This document shows positions 7,079 through 19,000 of a stretch of DNA of 64,000 nucleotides, piece by piece. Numbering within the stretch: the first letter of the stretch is position 1; each line of letters opens with the position of its first letter. Made by a program: the position numbers and the translations under genes. The notes below the pieces were generated by a model. It was not told the origin of the DNA and ran no database searches. It was given only the letters and a program-made list of their open reading frames with translations. The stretch spans positions 14,069 to 78,068 of the forward strand of contig JBFRWD010000075.1 in assembly GCA_051439425.1 (NCBI GenBank). The letters are read 5' to 3'. The stretch is from Synechococcus sp. GTDB lineage: Bacteria; Cyanobacteriota; Cyanobacteriia; Thermostichales; PCC-7336.

Positions 7079-8104
7079 GTGACTGTCGATTCTCCTGCCT
7101 CCAATTCTCTCAACTCGGTACAACTAGTTAGTGTGGCGACGGCTGTTCCTGAGACAGTTTTGACGAATGACGAGCTGGGACAGATTGTCGATACCTCCGA
7201 CGAATGGATTCGCCCCCGCACCGGAATTCGCGAACGTCGCATCTTAGAGCCGAGTCGCACTTTGGTCGATCTTGGTGCGGAAGCCGGTCGGTTGGCGATC
7301 GCGCAGGCTGGCCTTGAGCCGATGGACATTGACCTAATTGTGTTGGCGACATCTACCAGTAGCGAACGATTTGGGGCGGCTGGTGCCATTCAAGGACAGT
7401 TGGGAGCCAAGCGAGCGGTGGCGTTTGACCTAACGGCGGCTTGCACTGGGTTTGTGTATGCGGTGGCGACGGCGGCGCAGTTTTTGCAGACGGGGGTGTA
7501 TCGGCGGGCATTGATTGTGGCGGCAGATGTGTTGTCGCGCACAGTGGATTGGAGCGATCGCCGTACCTGCGTTCTATTTGGTGATGGTGCCGGAGCGGTT
7601 GTATTGGAAACTGGTTCGACTCAGGGATTGCTGGGGATGGAGTTGCGTACGGATGGTACGGGCAGCGATTTGCTGACGTTAGAGAATAAGTCGGAATCGG
7701 TGGAGCTGACTGACTCCATTTCTGTAGGGCAGTATCGCAATCAGTTCATTGCCATGAATGGGCGCGAGGTTTACAAGTTTGCGGTGCGAGAAGTGCCGGA
7801 GGTCGTGGAGAAGACGCTGTTTCGGGCGGGTCTGGATGCGGCGGATGTGGATGGATATTTCATGCATCAGGCGAATCAGCGGATTTTGGATGCGATCGCC
7901 AAACGCCTGAAAGTAGACAATGACCGGTTTGCGAGCGTTCTCGATCGCTACGGCAATACCTCAGCGGCGTCGATTCCGTTGGCGCTGGCGGATTGGGTGG
8001 AGTCGGGCAAGTTGAAGACCGGACAGACGGCGCTGGCGGCAGGGTTTGGTGCAGGACTGACTTGGGGGGCGATCGCTTTTAAGTGGGGGCGATTGGACGG
8101 TTAG
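7079..8104 (+). CDS. fabH: Beta-ketoacyl-ACP synthase III
   Basis: DTSDEWI..RTGIRERR, AACTGF, FGDGAGA, HQAN, GNTSAASIP. Confidence 0.97.
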   Translation: MTVDSPASNSLNSVQLVSVATAVPETVLTNDELGQIVDTSDEWIRPRTGIRERRILEPSRTLVDLGAEAGRLAIAQAGLEPMDIDLIVLATSTSSERFGAAGAIQGQLGAKRAVAFDLTAACTGFVYAVATAAQFLQTGVYRRALIVAADVLSRTVDWSDRRTCVLFGDGAGAVVLETGSTQGLLGMELRTDGTGSDLLTLENKSESVELTDSISVGQYRNQFIAMNGREVYKFAVREVPEVVEKTLFRAGLDAADVDGYFMHQANQRILDAIAKRLKVDNDRFASVLDRYGNTSAASIPLALADWVESGKLKTGQTALAAGFGAGLTWGAIAFKWGRLDG

Positions 8105-10866
8105 TCGCTCTTCTGATTTTCTTGGATGTTTTCGGAGAGAGCTTTTTGGCGATCGTGAATGCGTTTAGCTATGTCTTGAGCAACCTCGGTGATCTCTTGC
8201 GCTTGGCGTGGGTTTTCTCCTTGAAAGAGTTTGATTCCTATAATTAGGGGCTCTAGTTTGGACGCTATTGGGCAGTTGGTGAGAACTCGTACCGTTTCTA
8301 GGGTGTTACCTCGGACAACAGCTTCGACGAAGAAACTCGTAATTGGTCCAATGAAATTAGATGCGTTTTTGAGAGTCAATAGTTTTGCAAAGGCTGTAAA
8401 CGCCTCGTCGTAGAGCTCCAAATGCTCGTGCAGTAACTGTCCTAGTCTTACCCAAAGCTCTGCGTTATCTGGTTTGAGCTCGATAGCTTTGCGATAAGCT
8501 TCCTTTGCCTCACCATAGTTCTTCAAACATTCATGCAATAACTTTCCTCGAAATAGCCATAGTATCCATTCATAATTTGGAGGAACGAGTTCGATGGCTT
8601 TGCGGTAGGCTTCTTCAGCCTCGTCGTAGCGTTCCAAACGCACGTGTAGTAGTTTCCCAAAGTGAGCCCAAAAGTTCCATGCTTGACTGGACTTGATAGA
8701 GATTCCTTTACAATAAGCTGCTTCAGCTTCGTCGAACCGCTCCAAATGCTCGTACAGTAACCCTAGTTGTCCCCAAGCCCATTCGTAATCGGGTTCGAGC
8801 TCGATAGTCTTGCGATAAGTCTGTTCAGCCTCGTCGTAACGCTCCAAACACTCGTGCAGTAACTGTCCAAGTTGTCCCAAAGCCCATGCGTCATCGGGTT
8901 TGAGCTCGATGGCCTTGCGATAAGTCTGCTCAGCCTCGTCGTAACGCTCCAAGCGCTCGTGCAGTAATTGTCCGAGTTGTGCCCAATCCCATGCGTCATC
9001 GGGTTCGAGCTCGATGGCTTTGCGATAAGCCTGCTCAGCCTCATCGTAACGCTCCAAACGCTCGTGTAGTAATTGTCCTAGTTTTGCCCAATCCCATGCG
9101 TCATCGGGTTTGAGCTCGATGGCTTTGCGATAAGCCTGCTCAGCTTCGTTGTAACGCTCCAAACGCTCGTGCAGTAATTGCCCTAGTTTTGCCCAATCCC
9201 ATGCGTCATCGGGTTTGAGCTCGGTAGCCTTGCGATAAGCCTGCTCAGCCTCGTCGTAACGCTCCAAACGCTCGTGCAGTAACTGTCCTAGTTTTGCCCA
9301 AGCCCATTCGTAATCGGATTTGAGCTCTATGGCCTTGCGATAAGCTTCCTCAGCCTCGTCGTAGCGCTCCAAATGCTCGTGCAGTAATTGCCCTAGTTGT
9401 GTCCATGCTTTATGGTCATGTGGATTTATCTCGATGCGCTTGCGAAGCTCTTTTTCAGACTCTATCGGCGATAACGAGACAGCAGATTCTGAGGTGTCTG
9501 TAAGTGCGTTTGAAAGCTGTTTCAACTCTTCAGGAAGATCGAAAGCGGTAAAAAAGTCTTCTGGAGTTGCCTTTAATATTTCCGTCTTGAGTGATTTGGT
9601 GATTCCTTTATGATTGACAATTTCGCCATATGCACAATACAAATCTTGCCGGAAATCTTGATTGATCCCACCAATTTCCTTCGCCAATTTTGTAGTTGCA
9701 AGTACAAGATCTTGCTCTTGATAATATTGCACCATAAAATCGACAGCCGCTCTTACCCGACTGGCGGCTGTGCTGCGGCGTCGCATCAAATAGTAAATGT
9801 TGTAAAGCCTTTCAGTTGCCTGATAGTACTTCCTACGTCCTTCTTTTTCAACAACTTCTACTGCCCCTCGATTTACCAAACGATTCAATACAGAGCTCGC
9901 TTTGTTAATGTCTAACCGTGCTTTTTGTGAAACTTCTTTTGCTGTCGCAGGATCCCAGATCTCCAGCAATGCAACAAAAATCTTCCGTTCCTGGGCTGGC
10001 AGACTTTCAAGTTGGCCTTTAAAATAATCCGTGTGCTCATCAATTAATCGAGTCAGATTAGTCATTAAGTCTTGAAATGACAATTGCGCAGCAAACTCCG
10101 CCAAAATTCTAACGAGCCGAGGATTTCCTCCAGTCAATATTCTGACGGGATGTAATTGCTGTTCTGAAATTTCTTGTCCTGTGATTTTGTTCCAAAGCGG
10201 TTGACAATCTGCTGTACTTAAAGGTTTTAATTCAATCTGCTCAAATAGCTCGAACCAAGCTTTATCGATGTTTGAAATCTCATCAAAACTGGCTGTTGCC
10301 GTTCCCAATAGCATTGCACGCGGCTCGTTCATTAACGTATGGCGCAACGTCCAATCATCATCGCTACCAAGCTGTTCCTCCAACAACATGTTCAGATTTT
10401 CAACAACCAGTAGTAGCTTCCCCCCCCGTTCATCCACAAAATCCATTAGCTGCGCTAACGCCCTTGCCGCCAGCCGCTGGTCGTCCATCTCCGATTCCAG
10501 CTCGTCGTATACCAATTGCCACCGACCGTCTTTCGTTTGTTCCCCTAAATAAAACAACGCTTCCCGCCAAAATTCCCCCGGACTTGTAACCGAATAGACC
10601 TCTTCACCAAACACCAGCGGATACCAATCCGCATCCAACTCTTTGCTCCGACGAATCTCCGCAGCTACTCGTCGCACCAGCGTTGTCTTTCCAGTCCCTC
10701 GCGCCCCAATCAACAACACGTGCTGGTTGCTTTCCGCCTCCACGTTGTCCCGGATCCGTTCTATCGTCAGGTCGAGATACTCATTGCGCACCACAAACTG
10801 TTTGATGACCTCGTCATCGCTGCTAAACCCCGGATTGTATTTGGGAGCTGACAGAACCACCATCAC
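8101..10866 (-). CDS. STAND/AAA-type ATPase with winged-helix and C-terminal TPR array
   Basis: Walker A GARGTGKTT, Walker B-like LLLVVEN, GGNPR (GxP), wHTH (ATAKEVSQKARLDINKASSVLNRL) and about ten 35-aa TPRs. Confidence 0.8.
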   Translation of the reverse strand: MMVVLSAPKYNPGFSSDDEVIKQFVVRNEYLDLTIERIRDNVEAESNQHVLLIGARGTGKTTLVRRVAAEIRRSKELDADWYPLVFGEEVYSVTSPGEFWREALFYLGEQTKDGRWQLVYDELESEMDDQRLAARALAQLMDFVDERGGKLLLVVENLNMLLEEQLGSDDDWTLRHTLMNEPRAMLLGTATASFDEISNIDKAWFELFEQIELKPLSTADCQPLWNKITGQEISEQQLHPVRILTGGNPRLVRILAEFAAQLSFQDLMTNLTRLIDEHTDYFKGQLESLPAQERKIFVALLEIWDPATAKEVSQKARLDINKASSVLNRLVNRGAVEVVEKEGRRKYYQATERLYNIYYLMRRRSTAASRVRAAVDFMVQYYQEQDLVLATTKLAKEIGGINQDFRQDLYCAYGEIVNHKGITKSLKTEILKATPEDFFTAFDLPEELKQLSNALTDTSESAVSLSPIESEKELRKRIEINPHDHKAWTQLGQLLHEHLERYDEAEEAYRKAIELKSDYEWAWAKLGQLLHERLERYDEAEQAYRKATELKPDDAWDWAKLGQLLHERLERYNEAEQAYRKAIELKPDDAWDWAKLGQLLHERLERYDEAEQAYRKAIELEPDDAWDWAQLGQLLHERLERYDEAEQTYRKAIELKPDDAWALGQLGQLLHECLERYDEAEQTYRKTIELEPDYEWAWGQLGLLYEHLERFDEAEAAYCKGISIKSSQAWNFWAHFGKLLHVRLERYDEAEEAYRKAIELVPPNYEWILWLFRGKLLHECLKNYGEAKEAYRKAIELKPDNAELWVRLGQLLHEHLELYDEAFTAFAKLLTLKNASNFIGPITSFFVEAVVRGNTLETVRVLTNCPIASKLEPLIIGIKLFQGENPRQAQEITEVAQDIAKRIHDRQKALSENIQENQKSD
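8730..9400 (-). repeat. Near-identical 105-bp tandem repeats encoding TPRs
   Basis: gtaacgctccaaacgctcgtgcagtaa-type block recurs at about 8836, 8941, 9046, 9151, 9256 and 9361. Confidence 0.9.
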
Positions 10867-12107
10867 CCATCCCCCCGATCGCTAGCAGACACGTAGCTAA
10901 AACCGTAATGGTTTTTCCACCAATCCCTCAATAAATTCGATTCAAATTCATAACAGGCATCCCGTTGAATCAAATACCCGTCGTGCTTCAAGATCCCCAA
11001 AATCTCTATCAGCGAACTGTCTTCTCCAACCTCTCCGTAGTCTTGGCAAATCATCTGTGCTGCTGCTGGAGTTAACTGCCCAACAACTGCCGCTTCAGTC
11101 AATAGCTCTAACGTCAGTGGATGTTGTTTCACACTCAACACCATCTTGATGCGCTCTTCTAAGTGACTCAGATCGGCATGTCCCCTTACTCCCAACATGT
11201 CTTGCTGGTAAATACGCTCGGCTAGATCGAGAGAAATCGTTTCAAGGCTATTCTTCCTGCAATGTTGGTAGAGGTGGCTAAAGAACATCTGGACGTGGTA
11301 CGGAATGCAAACCCCTAGTAACGCCGCCATCCGCTGCTGCACATCATCTTCAAACGTGAGCTGAACCTCATTTGCTAAGGCATCCCAACAGGCACAAGCA
11401 ACGTTTACCGACCATGCCTTCAAATCAAATGGTGTCAGATGATTGATCGTGGCACTTAACCCCGCCTTTCGTAACAGCGGCTCTAACCCAATCGACCCCG
11501 TTACCACAAACCTCAACGTCCCCTGGTGTTGCAAGCAATTCCTTCTCAGCCAAGACATCCATAGCTCGGCTTCCTCCTTACGCTCATTGGTCATGCTGTA
11601 GTCCGAGCCTTTCAGCATCCGACTCACTAGAATCGGCACTTCATCGCAGAAAATCGCCACTGGTTGTTCCGAACTGGCCAATATATCCAAGAGACGATTG
11701 CCCTTACTCTGCCAATCACCTGGTGAGAGTCCCCCACGTAGTTTGATCTTCAACTCGCTGACTTGGATACTCCCTACACTTTGAGCTAGGCCATCCAATG
11801 TATTGGCAAACAAGTCCTGAGTTTTGATCCACAAGGGTTTATGCTCGCGTGTTGCTACGCTCAACTCGGCGATCGCGTCTGCAGCGTCCTTTGCATCTTG
11901 CAAGTCGATATGCAAACAGATGTATCGATCGGAAATCCGCCGCGACACCTCGTGCATCAAACTTGTTTTTCCCATCCGCCGCTGTGCCACCAACAGCAGA
12001 TGGTCGCCGCTATCCAACGACTCTTCAAATAGCTCTAGCTCTGCTTCTCGCCCAAAGAACCGATTGCCCGTTACGTAGTTGCCGACCGTACGCTTGAGCT
12101 TGTCCAC
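10863..12107 (-). CDS. STAND/archaeal-type ATP-binding protein (probable GTG start at 12107)
   Basis: GNYVTGNRFFGREAEL, degenerate Walker A AQRRMGKTS, Walker B IFCDE, VVTGSIGL, C-terminal LLRDWW. Overlaps the downstream gene by 4 bp. Confidence 0.75.
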   Translation of the reverse strand: MDKLKRTVGNYVTGNRFFGREAELELFEESLDSGDHLLLVAQRRMGKTSLMHEVSRRISDRYICLHIDLQDAKDAADAIAELSVATREHKPLWIKTQDLFANTLDGLAQSVGSIQVSELKIKLRGGLSPGDWQSKGNRLLDILASSEQPVAIFCDEVPILVSRMLKGSDYSMTNERKEEAELWMSWLRRNCLQHQGTLRFVVTGSIGLEPLLRKAGLSATINHLTPFDLKAWSVNVACACWDALANEVQLTFEDDVQQRMAALLGVCIPYHVQMFFSHLYQHCRKNSLETISLDLAERIYQQDMLGVRGHADLSHLEERIKMVLSVKQHPLTLELLTEAAVVGQLTPAAAQMICQDYGEVGEDSSLIEILGILKHDGYLIQRDACYEFESNLLRDWWKNHYGFSYVSASDRGDG

Positions 12108-12123
12108 AGCCAAATGCCTCTTT

Positions 12124-12199
12124 TCAACAATTCCATTGCCAACAAATTTGTTGGCAAGGTTAATATATCCAACAATTCTGTTGCCAACAAATCCGTTGG
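12124..12199. promoter_or_regulatory. 15-bp-periodic array of palindromic CAACAA-N4-GTTG sites upstream of the ATPase pair
   Basis: CAACAA starts at 12125, 12140, 12170 and 12185. ttgccaacaaatttgttggcaa (12136-12157) is a perfect palindrome. Confidence 0.65.
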
Positions 12200-12291
12200 G
12201 GATATTCAGAAAGAGAAAAGCCCCCATTGAGAACTGCTCAATAGAGGCCAAGGTTATTGAATTACCTCTGTCTTCAGGGATCTGAAGGTGT

Positions 12292-13473
12292 CTATCCCTT
12301 CACGCACACCACCTGTTTGAGGGTGGCGACAACTTCTACCAAGTCGGTTTGGCTGGCCATCACCTCCTCAATTGGTTTGTAAGCACCGGGAATTTCATCC
12401 AGAATCCCTTTGTCTTTGCGGCATTCGACACCGGCGGTTTGCTCGATTAGGTCATCGAGTGTGTAGGCTTTCTTTGCTTTGGTGCGGGACATGCGGCGTC
12501 CGGCTCCGTGGCTGCAAGAACAGTAACTGGCGTGGTTACCTTTGCCTTTAACGATGTAGGACTTGGCGCCCATCGAGCCGGGGATGATGCCGTAGTCGGT
12601 GGTGCGGGCGCGGACGGCTCCCTTGCGGGTGACGTATACGTCTTCGCCGAAGTGGTTTTCTTGCTCGGCGTAGTTGTGGTGGCAGTTGACGGCCAGCAGG
12701 GGCTTGGTGGGTTTGCCTCCGGCAAGATGCTTCTCAACGATGTGCTTGAAGCGGGCCATCATGACGTCGCGGTTGAAGCGGGCGTAGTCTTGCGCCCATT
12801 GCAGGTCGTGCCAGTAGGCAGCGAACTCGGGGGTGCCTTTGACGAAGTGGGCCAGGTCGGGATCGGGTAGGGTTTCGTCAGCTAGTTGAGCGAGCCCTTT
12901 TGCCGTTTTGATGTGGTTTTGGGCCAGTTTGTTGCCGATGTTGCGGGAGCCAGAGTGCAGCATCAGCCAGACGGTGTTGTCGGTGTCGAGGCAGAGCTCG
13001 ATGAAGTGGTTGCCGCCGCCAAGGGAGCCCATTTGGTGGAGAGATTTGGATTCTAGTTTTTGGACACCTTTGTGCAGGTTTTTGAACGAGCGCCAGCCGT
13101 TCCAGTTGTAGGCGTCTTTTTCGACGTCCTTGTTTTGGTTGAATCCGGTGGGGATAGCGGCTTCGATGTCTAGGCGAATTTTCTTGAGTTTGCCCTCTAG
13201 CATGTCGCCCGTAAATGGGGTTTTGATGGCGCACATCCCGCAGCCAATATCCACGCCGACAGCAGCGGGGATGATGGAATCTTTGGTGGCGATGACGGAA
13301 CCGACTAGGGCTCCTTTGCCCAGGTGGACGTCGGGCATGAGGGCGACGTGTTTGTAGACGAAGGGGAGGTTGGCGACGTTTTTGGCCATCCGGTATTCGT
13401 CGGAGCTAAGCTCGTGGTTTGCCCAAGAGTAAACGGGCTTATCGGTAGGTAGATTTAGATCTTTCTGTGACAT
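12292..13473 (-). CDS. rtcB: RNA ligase RtcB
   Basis: MPDVHLGKG, VGVDIGCGM, GSLGGGNHFIEL, LHSGSR, CHHNY, RKGA, PGSMG, SHGAGR, DEIPGAYK. ATG at 13473 (MSQKDL). Confidence 0.97.
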   Translation of the reverse strand: MSQKDLNLPTDKPVYSWANHELSSDEYRMAKNVANLPFVYKHVALMPDVHLGKGALVGSVIATKDSIIPAAVGVDIGCGMCAIKTPFTGDMLEGKLKKIRLDIEAAIPTGFNQNKDVEKDAYNWNGWRSFKNLHKGVQKLESKSLHQMGSLGGGNHFIELCLDTDNTVWLMLHSGSRNIGNKLAQNHIKTAKGLAQLADETLPDPDLAHFVKGTPEFAAYWHDLQWAQDYARFNRDVMMARFKHIVEKHLAGGKPTKPLLAVNCHHNYAEQENHFGEDVYVTRKGAVRARTTDYGIIPGSMGAKSYIVKGKGNHASYCSCSHGAGRRMSRTKAKKAYTLDDLIEQTAGVECRKDKGILDEIPGAYKPIEEVMASQTDLVEVVATLKQVVCVKG

Positions 13474-13602
13474 GGTTATTTCTCTCTTTCTTCTTCTTGG
13501 TCGGTGTTTTGGGTCGAATTTGTAGCGAGCAGCTACGACAATTGATGGAATTTGTTGCTGGTGGCAGGCAAGTAAGAATTGCTTTTTGGCAAAAGTGTAG
13601 AT

Positions 13603-13633
13603 AAGCCTCATGCTCACATAGCAGAGGAGGCTT
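13603..13633 (-). terminator. Stem-loop between rsr and rtcB (terminator/attenuator or processing site)
   Basis: Minus strand AAGCCTC-CTC-TGCT-ATGTG-AGCA-T-GAGGCTT, 11 nt after the rsr stop. Confidence 0.45.
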
Positions 13634-13644
13634 GAGGAGCATTC

Positions 13645-15246
13645 CTACAAATCTCCGTTGGCAATCATCTGAATGGCCCGAGGGGCACCGGGGTCAAACC
13701 CAGCGAAATCCCACGACAACGGATCTTGAGGATCGACCAAAGAGATGCGGTACGGAGCCAGCGAAACGTAAACCGCTTTCGCATCGGGATTCACCTTACG
13801 GCGATACTCTGCCAACGCCTGTGCGGGATGTCGCTTGCCTGCCCACGACTCGCAATCTGTCCAGAAGCAAAACACATCCGTCCAGACCCGCTTGGCGATC
13901 GCCCAGTCATACGCCACCGACGCATCCGTCCCCCCAAACGTTTGTCGCGTCGTCTTCTGCAACGCAGACGAGAAACAATCCCGAGCCGTAATCCCCAAGT
14001 CTTTGAAGGTAGTCGAGAATCCGCGAATAACATAGTTTTTCTCGGCTTTCGCCGTTACCAACGCCATCGTTGTCGCAATCTCGCTACAAGACAGATTCAT
14101 AGACCCGCCAGAGTAACAAGACATAGACCCCGAAACATCGACCGCATGCAAGAACGTCTTGCCCGTAGGCTTCACGGTCTCAAACGAACGCTCCAGAGCT
14201 TTCTCTAAAATGTCGCAAATGCGAGGAATCGGTTCCCACGTCTTCTTGCTGCGACCGGATCGACCCCCAGATCGATAAGTCTTCAGCGCCTTCAACACGT
14301 CAATCGGATGAATCCGTCCCTTGCGCAAGCGATCGCGACTGGTCAACACCTTCGCCACCCGCCTCAAGTTCTTAGACTTGTGAACTTGCAACACCCCAAT
14401 TTCAGTCAAAGACCCCAAGTTGCGCAACAGCGCCCCAATCGGCATGTCTTCAAACAGTAACTGCCAAGCGTTGGCATCCATCTTGGCGATCGGAGCCACC
14501 ATCTCGTGGGTCAATCGCCCCTCGGAGATCGCCATGCAGGTACTGTCAGGATTGCGCTTCAACCACTCGTACCACCACACCTGAGCAATCGGTCCATTGG
14601 GCACCCGATCGGGCAATGTCTCCCACCCATTTACCACCCAGTCGTAGAGAGCCTGGTGCCCTTCTGTCTCAGGCTTAACGTGGAATAAACGCAAGGCATC
14701 GCGATTGCTAAACCCATGCCGTTGTCGGTACTTCAACAACTGATAAGTCAACCACTTCACATCAGGATTCGACAACCACCCCTTACCGCATTCCCGCACC
14801 ACCTTACCCAAACCACGCACGGACTTGGTGTAGTTCAACCACTCGTAAAAATGACTGCCGGTGCGCACCACCTTAGGGAAAATCTCCATAAATGCCTGTT
14901 TTGCAGCATGGGAATCCCCCATAGACAGCAACACCAAGGCGTAGATGGGGGCGCTGTTGTTGATGGAACGACCGTCGCTAGCCGAGACAATCTCGCTCGC
15001 GGTGCGGGCTGGGTCTTTGTCCACACAAGCCAAGACCGTATCGGTAAAGTCACCGGTTAAATCGTGTTTGTCGGCGTAATAGGTGCTTTGCGCCGTGCCG
15101 ATCAGCAAGCAGCGGGTCAGCATGGTCCAGGGGCCGGGGTCAAACATGTAACCGCCAGACCGACCACGTACCATCTCCTGTTCACGTCCGGGAATCGGTT
15201 GATGTTGAGGAGTTTTAGTAGTCGAGGTGAAAAATTTATATGACAT
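13645..15246 (-). CDS. rsr: Ro60 ortholog (TROVE + vWA domain protein, Rsr)
   Basis: MVRGRSGGYMF, RCLLIGT..STYY, VVRTGSHF, LLKYRQRHGFS.RDALRL.H, MPIGALLRNLG, RIHP, MIDAS AVDVSGSM, GGTD, TDCE, GFD. ATG at 15246 after a purine-rich RBS. Confidence 0.93.
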   Translation of the reverse strand: MSYKFFTSTTKTPQHQPIPGREQEMVRGRSGGYMFDPGPWTMLTRCLLIGTAQSTYYADKHDLTGDFTDTVLACVDKDPARTASEIVSASDGRSINNSAPIYALVLLSMGDSHAAKQAFMEIFPKVVRTGSHFYEWLNYTKSVRGLGKVVRECGKGWLSNPDVKWLTYQLLKYRQRHGFSNRDALRLFHVKPETEGHQALYDWVVNGWETLPDRVPNGPIAQVWWYEWLKRNPDSTCMAISEGRLTHEMVAPIAKMDANAWQLLFEDMPIGALLRNLGSLTEIGVLQVHKSKNLRRVAKVLTSRDRLRKGRIHPIDVLKALKTYRSGGRSGRSKKTWEPIPRICDILEKALERSFETVKPTGKTFLHAVDVSGSMSCYSGGSMNLSCSEIATTMALVTAKAEKNYVIRGFSTTFKDLGITARDCFSSALQKTTRQTFGGTDASVAYDWAIAKRVWTDVFCFWTDCESWAGKRHPAQALAEYRRKVNPDAKAVYVSLAPYRISLVDPQDPLSWDFAGFDPGAPRAIQMIANGDL

Positions 15247-15300
15247 CTTTTCTTCTCCGTCCCTGATGGGATAAACGAACGGTGTCCCCAAATGGGGAAG

Positions 15301-15425
15301 GGAGACGGACGGGAATCGAACCCGTATCTCGGCGGACAAAAGGGGGGATCGTTAACAGCGATAACCTTGAGTCCTTCAGCCCTTGCGGGCAATCAGTGCG
15401 CTCTACCGTTTGAGCTACCGACTCC
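15301..15425 (-). ncRNA. tRNA-shaped Y-like RNA, copy D
   Basis: (G)GAGUCGG-UAGCUCAAACGGUAGAGCG-[CACUGAUUGCCC-GCAA-GGGCUGAAGGACUCAAGGUUAUCG...CCUUUUGUCC...]-ACGGG-UUCGAUU-CCCGU-CCGUCUC-C. Confidence 0.8.
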
Positions 15426-15447
15426 ATATAGGTTTTGGGAAAAACAT

Positions 15448-15552
15448 TGGTGGACGGGAAGAGATTCGAACTCCTGACCGATAACCCTCGCTCGACGACC
15501 TATGAGGTAAAGAGTGAACGAGGGGTTGCTCTACCATTTGAGCTACCCGCCC
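15448..15552 (-). ncRNA. tRNA-shaped Y-like RNA, copy C (encoded ACCA end)
   Basis: GGGCGGG-UAGCUCAAAUGGUAGAGCA-[ACCCCUCGUUC-ACUCU-UU-ACCU-CAU-AGGU-C-GU-C-GAGCGAGGG-UUAUCGGUC]-AGGAG-UUCGAAU-CUCUU-CCCGUCC-ACCA. Confidence 0.88.
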
Positions 15553-15582
15553 ATATTGAGTTTTGAGAATGAGAGGGGATTT

Positions 15583-15687
15583 GTTCGCGAAGCGTCTCCG
15601 TCAGGAGATACCCCGCCTTCCAGCTACCGATAACCTTCATCCGGCGTCCCTTTCGGGTCAGTGGTGAATAAAGAGGAAGACTCGCCC
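15583..15687 (-). ncRNA. Y-like RNA copy B (Ro-stem module without canonical D/T arms; ends approximate)
   Basis: GUCUUCC-UCUUUAUUC-ACCAC-UGA-CCC-GAAA-GGG-ACGCC-GGAUGAAG-GUUAUCG-GUAGCU-GGAAGGC, then hairpin UCUCC-UGAC-GGAGA. Confidence 0.65.
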
Positions 15688-15697
15688 GTATTGAGGT

Positions 15698-15828
15698 TGT
15701 AGTGGAGGAGGACTCGAACCTCCAGATGACGCAGTTCCCTACGATAACCCTCACTCTTCGACCCAATGGGTAAGAAATTGAATAAGGTAACTCGACTGCC
15801 GCCTTTACCAATTTGGCCACCCACTACA
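15698..15828 (-). ncRNA. tRNA-shaped Y-like RNA, copy A
   Basis: (UG)UAGUGGG-UGGCCAAAUUGGUAAAGGCG-GCAGU-[...CCUUAUUC-AAUUUC-UU-ACCC-AUU-GGGU-C-GA-A-GAGUGAGG-GUUAUCG...]-ACUGC-GUCAUCU-GGAGG-UUCGAGU-CCUCC-UCCACUA-(CA). Confidence 0.85.
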
Positions 15829-16015
15829 GGTGTTTGACTTGATAGTGGTGCGATGAAGTGTGTTTGGCTTGCGCCGCCCGTCCCTCATCGACATCCCAAG
15901 ACTAAGAGCCACTTGCCCCCCTATTCGAATGCAGCTCAAAACCCGGCCAACGCAGACTGGATAAGAGATGGGAGTTAGGGGGGAGGTGTGAAGTTGGGGG
16001 GCCCCCCTAACTTTG

Positions 16016-19000
16016 TTAGTGGAATTGCTGTTGGGATATTGGAGACTGAGCGACTCGATCTTGCGGGCGGGCAAATCGGTGCTTGGTGCGATCGTAGATT
16101 TCGTAGCGATTGCGGCCGCCTGTTTTTGCTGCGTACATGGCGGCATCTGCGTCGCGCAAAATCTCGGCTGGCGAGTTATACCTCGGATTACCGAGCGCTA
16201 TGCCAATGCTGGTGCTGGTGGAAAGTTGGCGATCGCCAATCACGACGGGTTGCATCACTGCCGTGAGAATGCGCTCGGCGGTTTGCTGGATGCCGACAGT
16301 ACTCTCCAAGTCATCCAGCAAAATTGTAAACTCGTCTCCCCCCAACCGAGAGACTGTATCCCCCGTGCGTACGCACTGCTGCAAGCGCTGAGCAATGGTG
16401 CGCAACAGCCGGTCTCCTGCGGCGTGACCGAGGGTATCGTTCACCGATTTAAATCGATCCAGGTCGAGGAACAGAACGGCGTATTGTTCGCTGAGACGGC
16501 GTTTGCTCCGTTCGATCGCCTGTCCCAGCCGATCGTTAAAGAGCGATCGATTGGGCAATCCGGTTAAGGGATCGTGGAAGGCGTGGAACCGTAGCTCTTG
16601 CTCCATCACCTTGCGAGTTGTGATGTCTTCCACCGTGCCGACATAGTACAAAAGCTGACCGGAACTATCCTGCACAGCCCGCCAATTTTCACTCACCCAA
16701 AATGTGTTGCCGTCGCGGTGGCGCACCTCAGATTCGTAAGCTTCCACTGCAAAATCTGTTGCCAATTGCTGCAGCAATTGCTGGCGCTGTTGAGAGTCAA
16801 CGTAGAGCAGCTGGTGAACGTTTGCCACCGATGCCATCATTTGGGCTGGACTTTCGTAGCCGTACATGGCGGCCAGTGCAGGATTTGCCCCGATCAACTG
16901 CCCGTCTGGGGCGACTTGGAAGATTCCCTCTAGTGCTTGCTCGAAAATGCTGCGATATTTGGCTTCTGCTTGTTGCAGGGCGTCCTGGGCCTGCTGTCGC
17001 TCGGTGATGTCGTTGCCCACGTACAGTACGCACAACTCACCGGACAATTCAATCAAATTCGCTGACAGCAATAGAGTGCGGGTATTGCCAGAATGTTGCT
17101 TGAACTCCACCTCCAGATTGCGGACAACACCATCTGTTTTCAGCCGTCTAAAAATCTCCCTTCGGGTCAGATCGCGGTGCCACAAGCCCAATTCTTTAGC
17201 GGTGCGCCCGATCGCCGCCTCCCGCTCTAATTTGCAGATGCTGAGGAAGCTGTCGTTAACCTCCAACAATTTGCCGGAGCGTACTGCCACAATGGCCACC
17301 GGACTGGAGCTGGATTTAAAGGCGGCGGCGAACTTTTCTTCCGATTGTCGTAGGGCTATTTCCGCATGCTTGCGCTCGGTGGTATCGCGAGCGACTAACA
17401 GGGCTGTGGTGGCTCCAGCAGGTGAAATTCGTCCGGAAAAGCATCTCTTTTGCCCGTTAATCTCCAACTGGTATTCCAGATCGGTGGTTTCGTTGCGATC
17501 GATCGCGGCTTGAATCGCCGTCAAACAGCGATTGCTATCATCGTCACTAATCAGATGTTGGAGGTGAATGCGCAATAGCTCTTCGGAAGGGGAGATGGGA
17601 GAGGAGGGATCGCTGGAGGTGATGTGGGTGTAGCGACCGACGCGATCGAACATCAGAATCACTTCGGTCATGGCGGAGAACACCACCCGCATGTGTCGTT
17701 CGGCGGCTTCCAGAGTAGCGGTGCGCTGCTGTACCCGATGCTCTAGTTCTACGTTGGTGGTGGCGAGGCGATCGATCGTGCCGCGCAATTGTGTGGCCAG
17801 TCCTTTGACAGAGGTGGAGAGAATTTCAAGCTCCGAGATCGTGCTGTGGGGAACAGCTAAGTCCAAAGCATTTGGGCCACCGGCCGCCATTTTTCGCGCC
17901 ACCGAGCTGAGTTCGTGGATGGAGCGAGCCATCCACCGGGCCGTCGCATTGCCGAACACGATGGCTAGTAACAGGGCGACTAAATACAGTGCTAGGGTGT
18001 CCCGCATGCTGCGACTGAGAGTACCGATTAGATCGGAGCTGGGGATGGCCACGATCATGAGCCAATCCAATCCCAGATCTCCTTTCATGGAGTCAACCTG
18101 AACGTAATAGGTTTCTCCGGCTGGGTCGCGAACCAATCCTTGAAAGGCGTCAACGGCTGCGTAGCTGCCAAATTCGTTGAGGAGGTGTTGCTCCACCGCT
18201 TGCATGTAGCTGTTGCTGCTGTCCGATACTGTGAACGGAGTTGGGGTTTCGCCCTCCGCGATCTGAGGAAACGTGTCTGCTTGGGAGCTGGCGACCACCG
18301 AGCCGCTGCGCTCTAGGATGATGGCCTCGCCCCGCTCGCCAATTTGCAATTCAGTTAGGAAGTCATCCAGTTGCGACAGAGTGATGTCCACCGCCAGGAC
18401 CCCATCAAGTTGATTGTTGCTGTCGCGGATGGGGATAGTGGGGGTAACGCCTCGCACCGGCTGGGCCGCAAAGTAGTAGATCGGAGACCAGGTGGGGCCG
18501 TTACTTTCCCTGGCAGACTCGTACCATGGCCGGATTCGCGGATCGTAACTATCCGTTCTCAGAAGAGTTTCTGGCTCGCCGTTGCTATCTAACTGATAAA
18601 TTTCGCGGGTGGGGGCGATGTCGGATGTGACGCGGTAGGAGAGGGGCTCGTCTTCACTTTGAGTGACGAGTATAAACTGGCCGGATTCATCACCGTAGTA
18701 CATCGTACGGACAGATTCTTCTAACCGTACGACTTGATAGAAGTAGCGTTGTAGGTCCTCGAAATTACTGGGATCGATTTGGCCGGTGGAGATGGCCGCT
18801 TGCGTGATTTGCAAAAAGGTGTGGGGCTGCTTGGCAAAATCAATCAGGTGATGTTCGATATGTTCGGTTGCTTCGGAACTCAGCTCGAAGGCGAGCGATC
18901 GCACGGCTCGCTGGCCGTTATAGAACGATAGGGCACCGGTAAAACCAGTGACCAGGACGATTTGTAGCAGGAAGGGTGCTACCAGCGCTTGCTGGAGAGA

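Follow-up and report, generated by a model that had tools for sequence, protein, structure and literature searches.

The array of Y RNA units beside rsr and rtcB

The window (i.e., the whole 64-kb stretch of DNA analyzed here) carries on its minus strand a tandem array of four Y-RNA-like units, A to D, which lies upstream of rsr, the gene for a Ro60 orthologue, and then of rtcB, the gene for an RNA ligase. The third of these units, copy C, is the subject of this analysis, and rsr follows 201 nt downstream of it on the same strand. Our comparison covers 50 cyanobacterial rsr loci, of which 39 were taken from genomes and 11 from metagenomes (each designated by an L and a number). An alignment of 32 units (A1) was used to build a covariance model, R1, which gave 134 matches in the window and these 50 loci. 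The features needed for the discussion are as follows, with the support for each in parentheses.

15698..15827, minus strand: unit A, a Y RNA unit of tRNA shape that has an acceptor stem of 8 bp and lacks CCA (R1, 74 bits; fold)
15562..15688, minus strand: unit B, degenerate (R1, 21.7 bits, E value of 0.006; fold no better than those of shuffles)
15448..15552, minus strand: copy C, a Y RNA unit of tRNA shape, 105 nt long with its encoded ACCA (Rfam tRNA model, 42.9 bits; R1, 93.6 bits; cloverleaf fold)
15546..15552, minus strand: 5′ strand of the copy C acceptor, G1 to G7 (GGGCGGG), with G3 at 15550 (sequence; compensatory change at 7 of 7 acceptor pairs in 32 units)
15528..15543, minus strand: D arm of copy C, positions 10 to 25, with G18 and G19 (Rfam tRNA alignment)
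15485..15524, minus strand: hairpin replacing the anticodon arm, with the Ro-module strand (fold; alignment A1, helix 3 being 91.5% paired)
15479..15486, minus strand: GGUUAUCG, the best-conserved stretch across all units (A1 columns invariant or nearly so)
15459..15475, minus strand: T arm of copy C, AGGAG UUCGAAU CUCUU (Rfam tRNA alignment; T helix 100% paired)
15452..15458, minus strand: 3′ strand of the copy C acceptor, positions 66 to 72 (CCCGUCC), with U70 at 15454 (sequence; covariation in 32 units)
15448..15451, minus strand: discriminator A73 (15451) and encoded CCA (15450 to 15448) (sequence; constant in contigs of close relatives, where the adjacent spacer varies)
15301..15424, minus strand: unit D, a Y RNA unit of tRNA shape that lacks CCA and has G-1:C73 and a mismatched U4-U69 (Rfam tRNA model, 39.3 bits; R1, 84.9 bits)
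13645..15246, minus strand: rsr, Ro60 orthologue of 533 amino acids (Pfam vWA_Ro60, 1.5e-38; TROVE, 5.2e-16)
12292..13617, minus strand: rtcB RNA ligase ORF (Pfam RtcB, 2e-124, match from residue 78)

Units A, C, and D share a tRNA shape, and GGUUAUCG, with a purine-rich strand directly before it, is common to all four units. Unit B has decayed; it retains only the internal Ro-module motif, its T arm and acceptor being gone, and in contigs of relatives (sequencing runs X3 and X8) an intact unit ending in ACCA stands at its place. A scan of positions 15200 to 16100 for sigma-70 promoters and terminators found nothing. Sequencing runs were also searched for RNA data over 15200 to 15900, and none turned up, a blank that counts neither for nor against expression. 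On the protein-coding side, the longest RtcB ORF has 77 residues ahead of the Pfam match, a basic extension that does not look conserved. Since the match begins only at residue 78, the true start of rtcB is probably an internal ATG, which would leave a spacer of about 170 nt after rsr. Downstream of rtcB and on the same strand, the region from 8101 to 12251 encodes a 462-amino-acid protein with a weak AAA_16 match and a 921-amino-acid protein that matches STAND-type NTPase domains, a TrmB domain, and TPR repeats. When the RtcB of the window was used as a tblastn query, no match was found in the stored flanks of L001 to L050, with the flanks of L020 and L002 being too short to tell.

Elements resembling parts of the Y RNA also occur elsewhere at rsr loci. 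The rsr leader (15247 to 15279, minus strand) contains a hairpin and a purine run that copy the Ro-module hairpin of the Y RNA and overlap the Shine-Dalgarno sequence. Most of the loci L001 to L048 have such a hairpin within the 35 nt 5′ of the rsr start codon, and in many of them it takes the form UUGCCC-loop-GGGCUGAAGGAGG. This arrangement suggests that Rsr may repress its own translation via a Y RNA mimic in the leader. An Rfam call of a glutamine riboswitch before rsr was rejected; it scored 20.8 bits versus 35 and is better read as the copy of the Ro-module hairpin. Several loci have a further Y-like unit just 3′ of rsr (L007:4122-4231, L025:4150-4263, and L006:4157-4249), where the window has rtcB instead. 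In Chamaesiphon and its relatives (L010, L012, L014, L018, L019, L022, L034, and L048), Y-like units of 120 to 130 nt are mixed upstream of rsr with tRNA-sized genes of 71 to 78 nt; both gene sizes share the acceptor stem GGAACUG, and no unit encodes CCA. It looks as if, in these arrays, one unit may exist both with and without its Ro module.

Fold, topology, and class of copy C

The first-pass annotation had read an alanine-type acceptor end in copy C, i.e., G1-C72, G2-C71, and G3·U70 followed by A73 and a genomic CCA, and this is what the minus strand carries from 15552 to 15448. The complete acceptor helix is G1-C72, G2-C71, G3·U70, C4-G69, G5-C68, G6-C67, and G7-C66, and the base preceding G1 is U. 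U8 is present, the D and T arms are canonical (with a T loop of UUCGAAU), and the Rfam tRNA model (RF00005) matches positions 15552 to 15451 at 42.9 bits, with a gathering score of 29. In the Rfam alignment the anticodon stem-loop is missing and a 44-nt insertion stands in its place; the minimum-free-energy fold (−38.4 kcal/mol; z = −3.47, equaled by 0 of 200 shuffles) is a cloverleaf that has a long hairpin for its third arm. Both lines of evidence bear out the earlier statement that the unit has no anticodon. Copy C cannot decode. ARAGORN called no tRNA anywhere within the 64-kb window, copy C included.

Where does such an RNA begin and end? In A1, a cloverleaf with the Ro hairpin inside the unit has 96.4% of its cells paired, versus 81.2% in shuffles and at most 57.1% with the partners slid, percentages that are partly built in, since the A1 seeds were picked by a script requiring acceptor pairing and alignments A2 and A3 were fitted to the model; the compensatory changes found at all 7 acceptor pairs across the 32 units, and the tails of the units, are not. 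Among 59 neighbor pairs, the 3′ acceptor strand finds a better partner in the 5′ strand of its own unit than in the one of the following unit 48 times (10 ties and 1 worse), and for copy C the figures are 7 of 7 pairs within the unit versus 5 of 7 with unit D. Nine loci have a single usable R1 match and thus offer no neighboring unit for acceptor pairing across units. Judging from these sequence comparisons, we conclude that the cyanobacterial units are unpermuted, each being a tRNA with a Ro module in place of the anticodon arm.

The alternative is a permuted layout, in which the real RNA would consist of the Ro-module strand of copy C, its T arm, a closed stem-loop (the 3′ strand of copy C, the spacer, and the 5′ strand of unit D), and the D arm of unit D, an arrangement that would place the ACCA inside a loop and never at a free end. 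The Rfam YrlA model, RF02553, aligns in exactly this way (15480 to 15399, from the T arm of copy C into the D arm of unit D, so that a D arm and a T arm are both taken in), and Chen et al. (2014, PMC4201824) delimit cyanobacterial YrlA likewise, in that their coordinates for Lyngbya aestuarii BL J map to L030 positions 1974 to 2142, across two of our units (1917 to 2046 and 2086 to 2233); the legend in their supplement gives the YrlA ends as not determined. However, the RF02553 match scores 20.7 bits, far under the gathering score of 69. The pairing counts above favor the partner within the unit, there is no neighbor to pair with in the nine single-match loci or for the last units of arrays, and the different Ro-module layout of unit D cannot pair with the strand of copy C. 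Moreover, a permuted RNA does not account for why NCCA is enriched precisely where the helix ends, as described below. We therefore regard the permuted layout as highly improbable. If the unpermuted reading holds, the delimitation of cyanobacterial YrlA genes would be corrected, with the published coordinates spanning two adjacent units.

To which class do the unpermuted units belong? In the YrlA-II alignment of Chen et al. (2014, PMC4201824), GGUUAUCG follows a purine-rich strand at the 5′ end of cyanobacterial YrlA, and because units A to D match this 5′ end in both elements, they are, on sequence grounds, Y RNA genes of the YrlA class. YrlA, as the cited parts of the literature describe it (PMC4201824; 10.1101/312249; RF02553), lies beside rsr and has conserved tRNA-like D and T arms, as does copy C. 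In its Ro60-binding module, GGUUAUCG comes after a GNCGAA-type motif, an order also seen in the cyanobacterial rows of the YrlA-II alignment; copy C shares GGUUAUCG, and its sequence at the motif place is given below. In Salmonella the operon also includes rtcB, a gene that lies downstream of rsr in the window too. The difference is one of topology. As published, YrlA has the layout of a tRNA after circular permutation, its acceptor stem-loop being closed and a free CCA lacking, and in the 2018 structure paper, which stresses the absence of a free CCA end, the molecule ends in the Ro stem (10.1101/312249); copy C, in contrast, has an open acceptor stem, a Ro stem closed by a hairpin, an encoded CCA, and alanine marks at that end.

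The main text of Chen et al. also describes YrlA as a tRNA mimic that is modified by TruB and DusA and reports for the Mycobacterium smegmatis YrlA a cleavage by RNase P after which CCA is gained, the product having an opened 7-bp acceptor stem that ends in CCA (PMC4201824). The M. smegmatis RNA is permuted and in two pieces, with CA added after transcription, whereas copy C is in one piece with its CCA in the gene.

The Ro-module stem and GGUUAUCG are conserved across the units of A1, and the predicted link between copy C and Ro60 is drawn from this conserved motif and from gene adjacency. At the place of GNCGAAG, where most units have GNCGA(A/C)G, copy C reads GUCGUCG (15499 to 15493), and a close relative (run X8) has A at 15495, the first deviating base. 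Given this departure from GNCGAAG, Ro60 binding by copy C could be weakened relative to its orthologues.

Wobble pair, discriminator, and CCA among the homologues

The comparative signal comes from two sets of units. Set 1 comprises the window and the 50 loci; 92 units were kept out of the 134 R1 matches, after the removal of five duplicate loci, matches shorter than 95 nt, rows with acceptor gaps, and units in which fewer than 6 of the 7 acceptor pairs can form. ACCA directly follows the acceptor helix in 23 of the 92 units, against about 0.7 expected (two registers at 1/256 each), so its position at the helix end is beyond chance. In 16 of these 23 units, G·U is the third pair from the end, and in none of the 23 does it occur at pair 1, 2, 4, or 5; a G·U at 3:70 is seen in 6 of the 69 units that lack ACCA. 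Counted by distinct acceptor haplotype, the wobble pair is present in 9 of 15 with ACCA versus 6 of 51 without. Set 2 was examined after the idea had formed. It derives from a search with R1 over 151 genomes sampled across the phylum, from which 17 loci with long matches were realigned; none of its units is identical to a unit of set 1, and the counts cover units with the Ro motif. Here, G·U is found in 6 of 10 ACCA units and, at 3:70 or 2:71, in 0 of 26 units without ACCA. For the two sets combined (67 related loci), 22 of 33 ACCA units have G·U as the third pair from the end, versus 6 of 95 units without ACCA; because the units are related, the raw counts and the Fisher values for set 1 overstate independence.

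The first-pass annotation had also proposed the conservation of G3·U70 and A73 among homologues as a check. For the most part they are conserved: both are present in all four copy C orthologues (the window, L020:2064, L002:2205, and L023:2189), and the combined counts point the same way. Against this, only two of the four orthologues keep the encoded CCA, with AACA in L002 and AUCC in L023, and the third pair is G-C or A-U, not G·U, in 11 of the 33 ACCA units, including both of L015 and L041 and both of L026. Thus, a CCA end does not require alanine identity.

The units with both G·U and ACCA fall into two types. Type I units, copy C among them, have a 7-bp stem with G3·U70, followed by A73-CCA. 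Type II units, found in Nostoc, Lyngbya/Capilliphycus, Spirulina, Coleofasciculaceae, Xenococcaceae, and other genomes, have an 8-bp stem with an extra G-1:C73, a G2·U71, and a G-C at 3:70, followed by ACCA; this description presupposes that G-1 is retained after RNase P cleavage, as in tRNA-His. The lower stems of the two types are identical in tRNA numbering (C4-G69, G5-C68, and G6-C67), which implies that the wobble pair has shifted by one position along with the helix end, its distance to the ACCA being kept. Paralogues from the same loci that have the same stem and a non-CCA tail (CCUUU or CCUCC) carry G-C at that pair. Such a placement of G·U is the geometry that would be expected for AlaRS, a reader of the top of the acceptor helix and not of the anticodon.

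A comparison on a shorter scale is given by metagenome DNA contigs from four runs in four studies, at a likeness of at least 80%, which inform on near-identical relatives only. They show one difference in copy C itself, 15495 A>T in the hairpin in one run, whereas in the 21-nt spacer 3′ of its CCA one run differs by three substitutions plus a 2-nt deletion and a second run by a single substitution.

Is an encoded CCA simply how this lineage writes its tRNA genes? Of the 38 tRNA genes called in the window's genome, one runs over a contig end, and none of the other 37, all readable, encodes CCA. For two further carrier genomes, the fetched subsets of tRNA genes gave 0 of 23 and 1 of 54, so an encoded CCA is not this lineage's habit. 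Nor is it present in the genome's two tmRNA genes. A recent derivation of copy C from tRNA-Ala or tmRNA was considered and rejected; tRNA-Ala comes only 8th of 37 in likeness to copy C (over the 5′ and 3′ parts), and the tRNA-Ala and tmRNA genes are without an encoded CCA.

These data bear on the possibility that the alanine-type end is a neutral relic, in which case the units would stem from an alanine tRNA or a tmRNA-like gene with an encoded CCA, and G·U and ACCA would be features that serve no present function and have not yet decayed. All of the units are paralogues or orthologues, so features that they have in common can be inherited; G·U-bearing type I units occur only in four related genomes; and the CCA has been lost in some orthologues. 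Yet G·U is one transition away from G-C and still persists, while the pairs flanking it change (the fifth from C-G to U-A and the last from G·U to C-G), and its tRNA position differs between the subfamilies at an equal distance to ACCA. A relic of this kind also sits poorly with an RNA that is no closer to tRNA-Ala than to other tRNAs (the rank given above), in a genome whose own tRNA-Ala and tmRNA lack an encoded CCA. We consider a relic unlikely.

A predicted alanyl end and its possible use

The bacterial alanine identity set consists of A73, G2-C71, G3·U70, G4-C69, and G20 and includes no anticodon position (PMC9976931). The same source has G3·U70 governing alanine charging, with G-C or A-U at this pair abolishing it, and this agrees with the first-pass view that G3·U70 and A73 are the AlaRS determinant and that the anticodon goes unread. 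Copy C has G3·U70 (15550 and 15454), A73, and G2-C71. It lacks the minor determinants, with C4-G69 in place of G4-C69 and U20 in place of G20; in type II units, the fourth pair is G-C and the second is U-A. There are precedents for the charging of molecules other than tRNAs. In alanine minihelices and microhelices, an acceptor-T helix with G3·U70 suffices for AlaRS (PMC9976931), and viral tRNA-like structures can likewise be charged (10.1101/312249). The minihelices are synthetic and the viral structures are genome ends, whereas copy C is a chromosomal small RNA gene tied to Ro60. Because the conservation of G·U with ACCA is largely positive and an encoded CCA is rare among the tRNA genes, we regard the charging of copy C by AlaRS as a well-supported prediction from sequence. 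Whether copy C would carry alanine in vivo we put at even odds.

A cellular RNA of comparable design is tmRNA. Its tRNA-like domain has no anticodon, ends in G1-C72, G2-C71, G3·U70, and A73-CCA, and is charged by AlaRS. The tmRNA of this genome has an alanine-type acceptor stem like that of copy C, and its genes lie on contigs other than that of copy C. Copy C differs in having no mRNA-like reading frame and no pseudoknots and in being 105 nt long, but it has a canonical D arm. The Rfam tmRNA and permuted-tmRNA models gave no match on copy C and weak matches on units A and D. As a side observation, the two tmRNA genes called by ARAGORN, on contigs C135 and C145, encode tag peptides that are one residue apart (ANKIVAFSRKPAAVAVA and ANNIVAFSRKPAAVAVA), a difference that points to the presence of two strains in the assembly or to a genuine duplication.

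Based on the anatomy of copy C and the comparative signal, we propose a model to which we assign a probability of roughly 0.5, namely, that copy C is an unpermuted Y RNA of the YrlA class that is released like a tRNA and charged by AlaRS. In this model, the array would be cotranscribed with rsr, RNase P would free copy C by cutting at G1, and the 3′ end would be trimmed to the encoded CCA. Ro60 would be bound at the hairpin module. AlaRS, reading the acceptor end alone, would then charge copy C with alanine, a step that we posit because the end carries G1-C72, G2-C71, G3·U70, and A73-CCA. What would an alanyl ester be for? This is the weakest step of the model. The use that we favor is that the ester would cap and protect, or gate, a free 3′ end within a Ro60 particle that works with 3′-to-5′ exonucleases. 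In other bacteria the Ro60 particle includes the 3′-to-5′ exonuclease PNPase, and protection or gating of a free 3′ end has been raised for M. smegmatis in the main text of PMC4201824. As second choices, we speculate that the ester could report charging status or allow binding of EF-Tu.

The principal rival accepts the free CCA and dispenses with the amino acid. Copy C would never be charged, and its CCA and acceptor would serve tRNA-type processing and stability (RNase P cleavage and protection from exonucleases); the G·U would be kept for another partner or for helix geometry, and Ro60 or the bulky hairpin would keep AlaRS off. That a third of the ACCA units are without G·U implies that the CCA end has a use of its own, and the absence of G4-C69 and G20 from copy C also speaks for this rival. 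The M. smegmatis YrlA is a further point in favor, in that it receives CCA after RNase P cleavage and charging is not shown for it in the main text of PMC4201824. Left unexplained, however, are the confinement of G·U to the third pair from an ACCA end and its one-position shift with the longer helix, together with the G-C of the non-ACCA paralogues; moreover, even acceptor microhelices with G3·U70 are charged by AlaRS (PMC9976931). We judge an uncharged end to be rather unlikely, and charging by AlaRS remains our preferred reading.

Earlier publications describe Y RNA and its mimicry of tRNA, and they raise charging as a bare possibility. The authors of the M. smegmatis work wrote that YrlA “could potentially be aminoacylated,” judged aminoacylation unlikely as a general feature of YrlA, and proposed no amino acid identity in the main text, where the word “alanine” occurs 0 times (Chen et al. 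2014, PMC4201824); “alanyl” occurs 0 times in the preprint 10.1101/312249. A full-text literature search, with most subscription journals outside its scope, found no paper linking Y RNA or YrlA to alanine identity or to AlaRS. Nor were the unpermuted cyanobacterial topology, the encoded CCA, and the conserved alanine identity set found in the literature searched, mostly without subscription journals.

What would follow if copy C were charged? It would belong to a second cellular class of non-decoding RNA charged with alanine, after tmRNA. An aminoacyl end on Ro60 RNA surveillance particles would link RNA quality control and repair to tRNA charging status, EF-Tu, or the ribosome, and Ro60, RtcB, and exonuclease-based RNA repair would be connected to aminoacylation. 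The purpose of the tRNA-like domain of bacterial Y RNA is a question that has stood since 2014; if the cyanobacterial units are unpermuted and have a chargeable alanine-type acceptor, this question becomes answerable by standard tRNA biochemistry. Among the carriers available in culture are Nostoc strains, and a unit with both G·U and ACCA is present in Lyngbya aestuarii BL J (L030), Capilliphycus salinus ALCB114379 (L028), and Nostoc sp. PA-18-2419 (L025).

More tentatively, we would extend the charging model beyond the window. It is possible, though on balance somewhat doubtful, that many cyanobacteria keep Ro60-bound, anticodon-less tRNA mimics that are truly charged by AlaRS and that a second set, defined by the acceptor sequences of four units, may be charged by HisRS. 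The four units (L036:1982-2107, L085:1501-1631, L089:1501-1652, and L084:1912-2049) end in G-1:C73 followed directly by CCA; unit D and its orthologues have G-1:C73 but no encoded CCA. In bacteria, G-1:C73 is the acceptor mark of tRNA-His, and histidine identity works without the anticodon.
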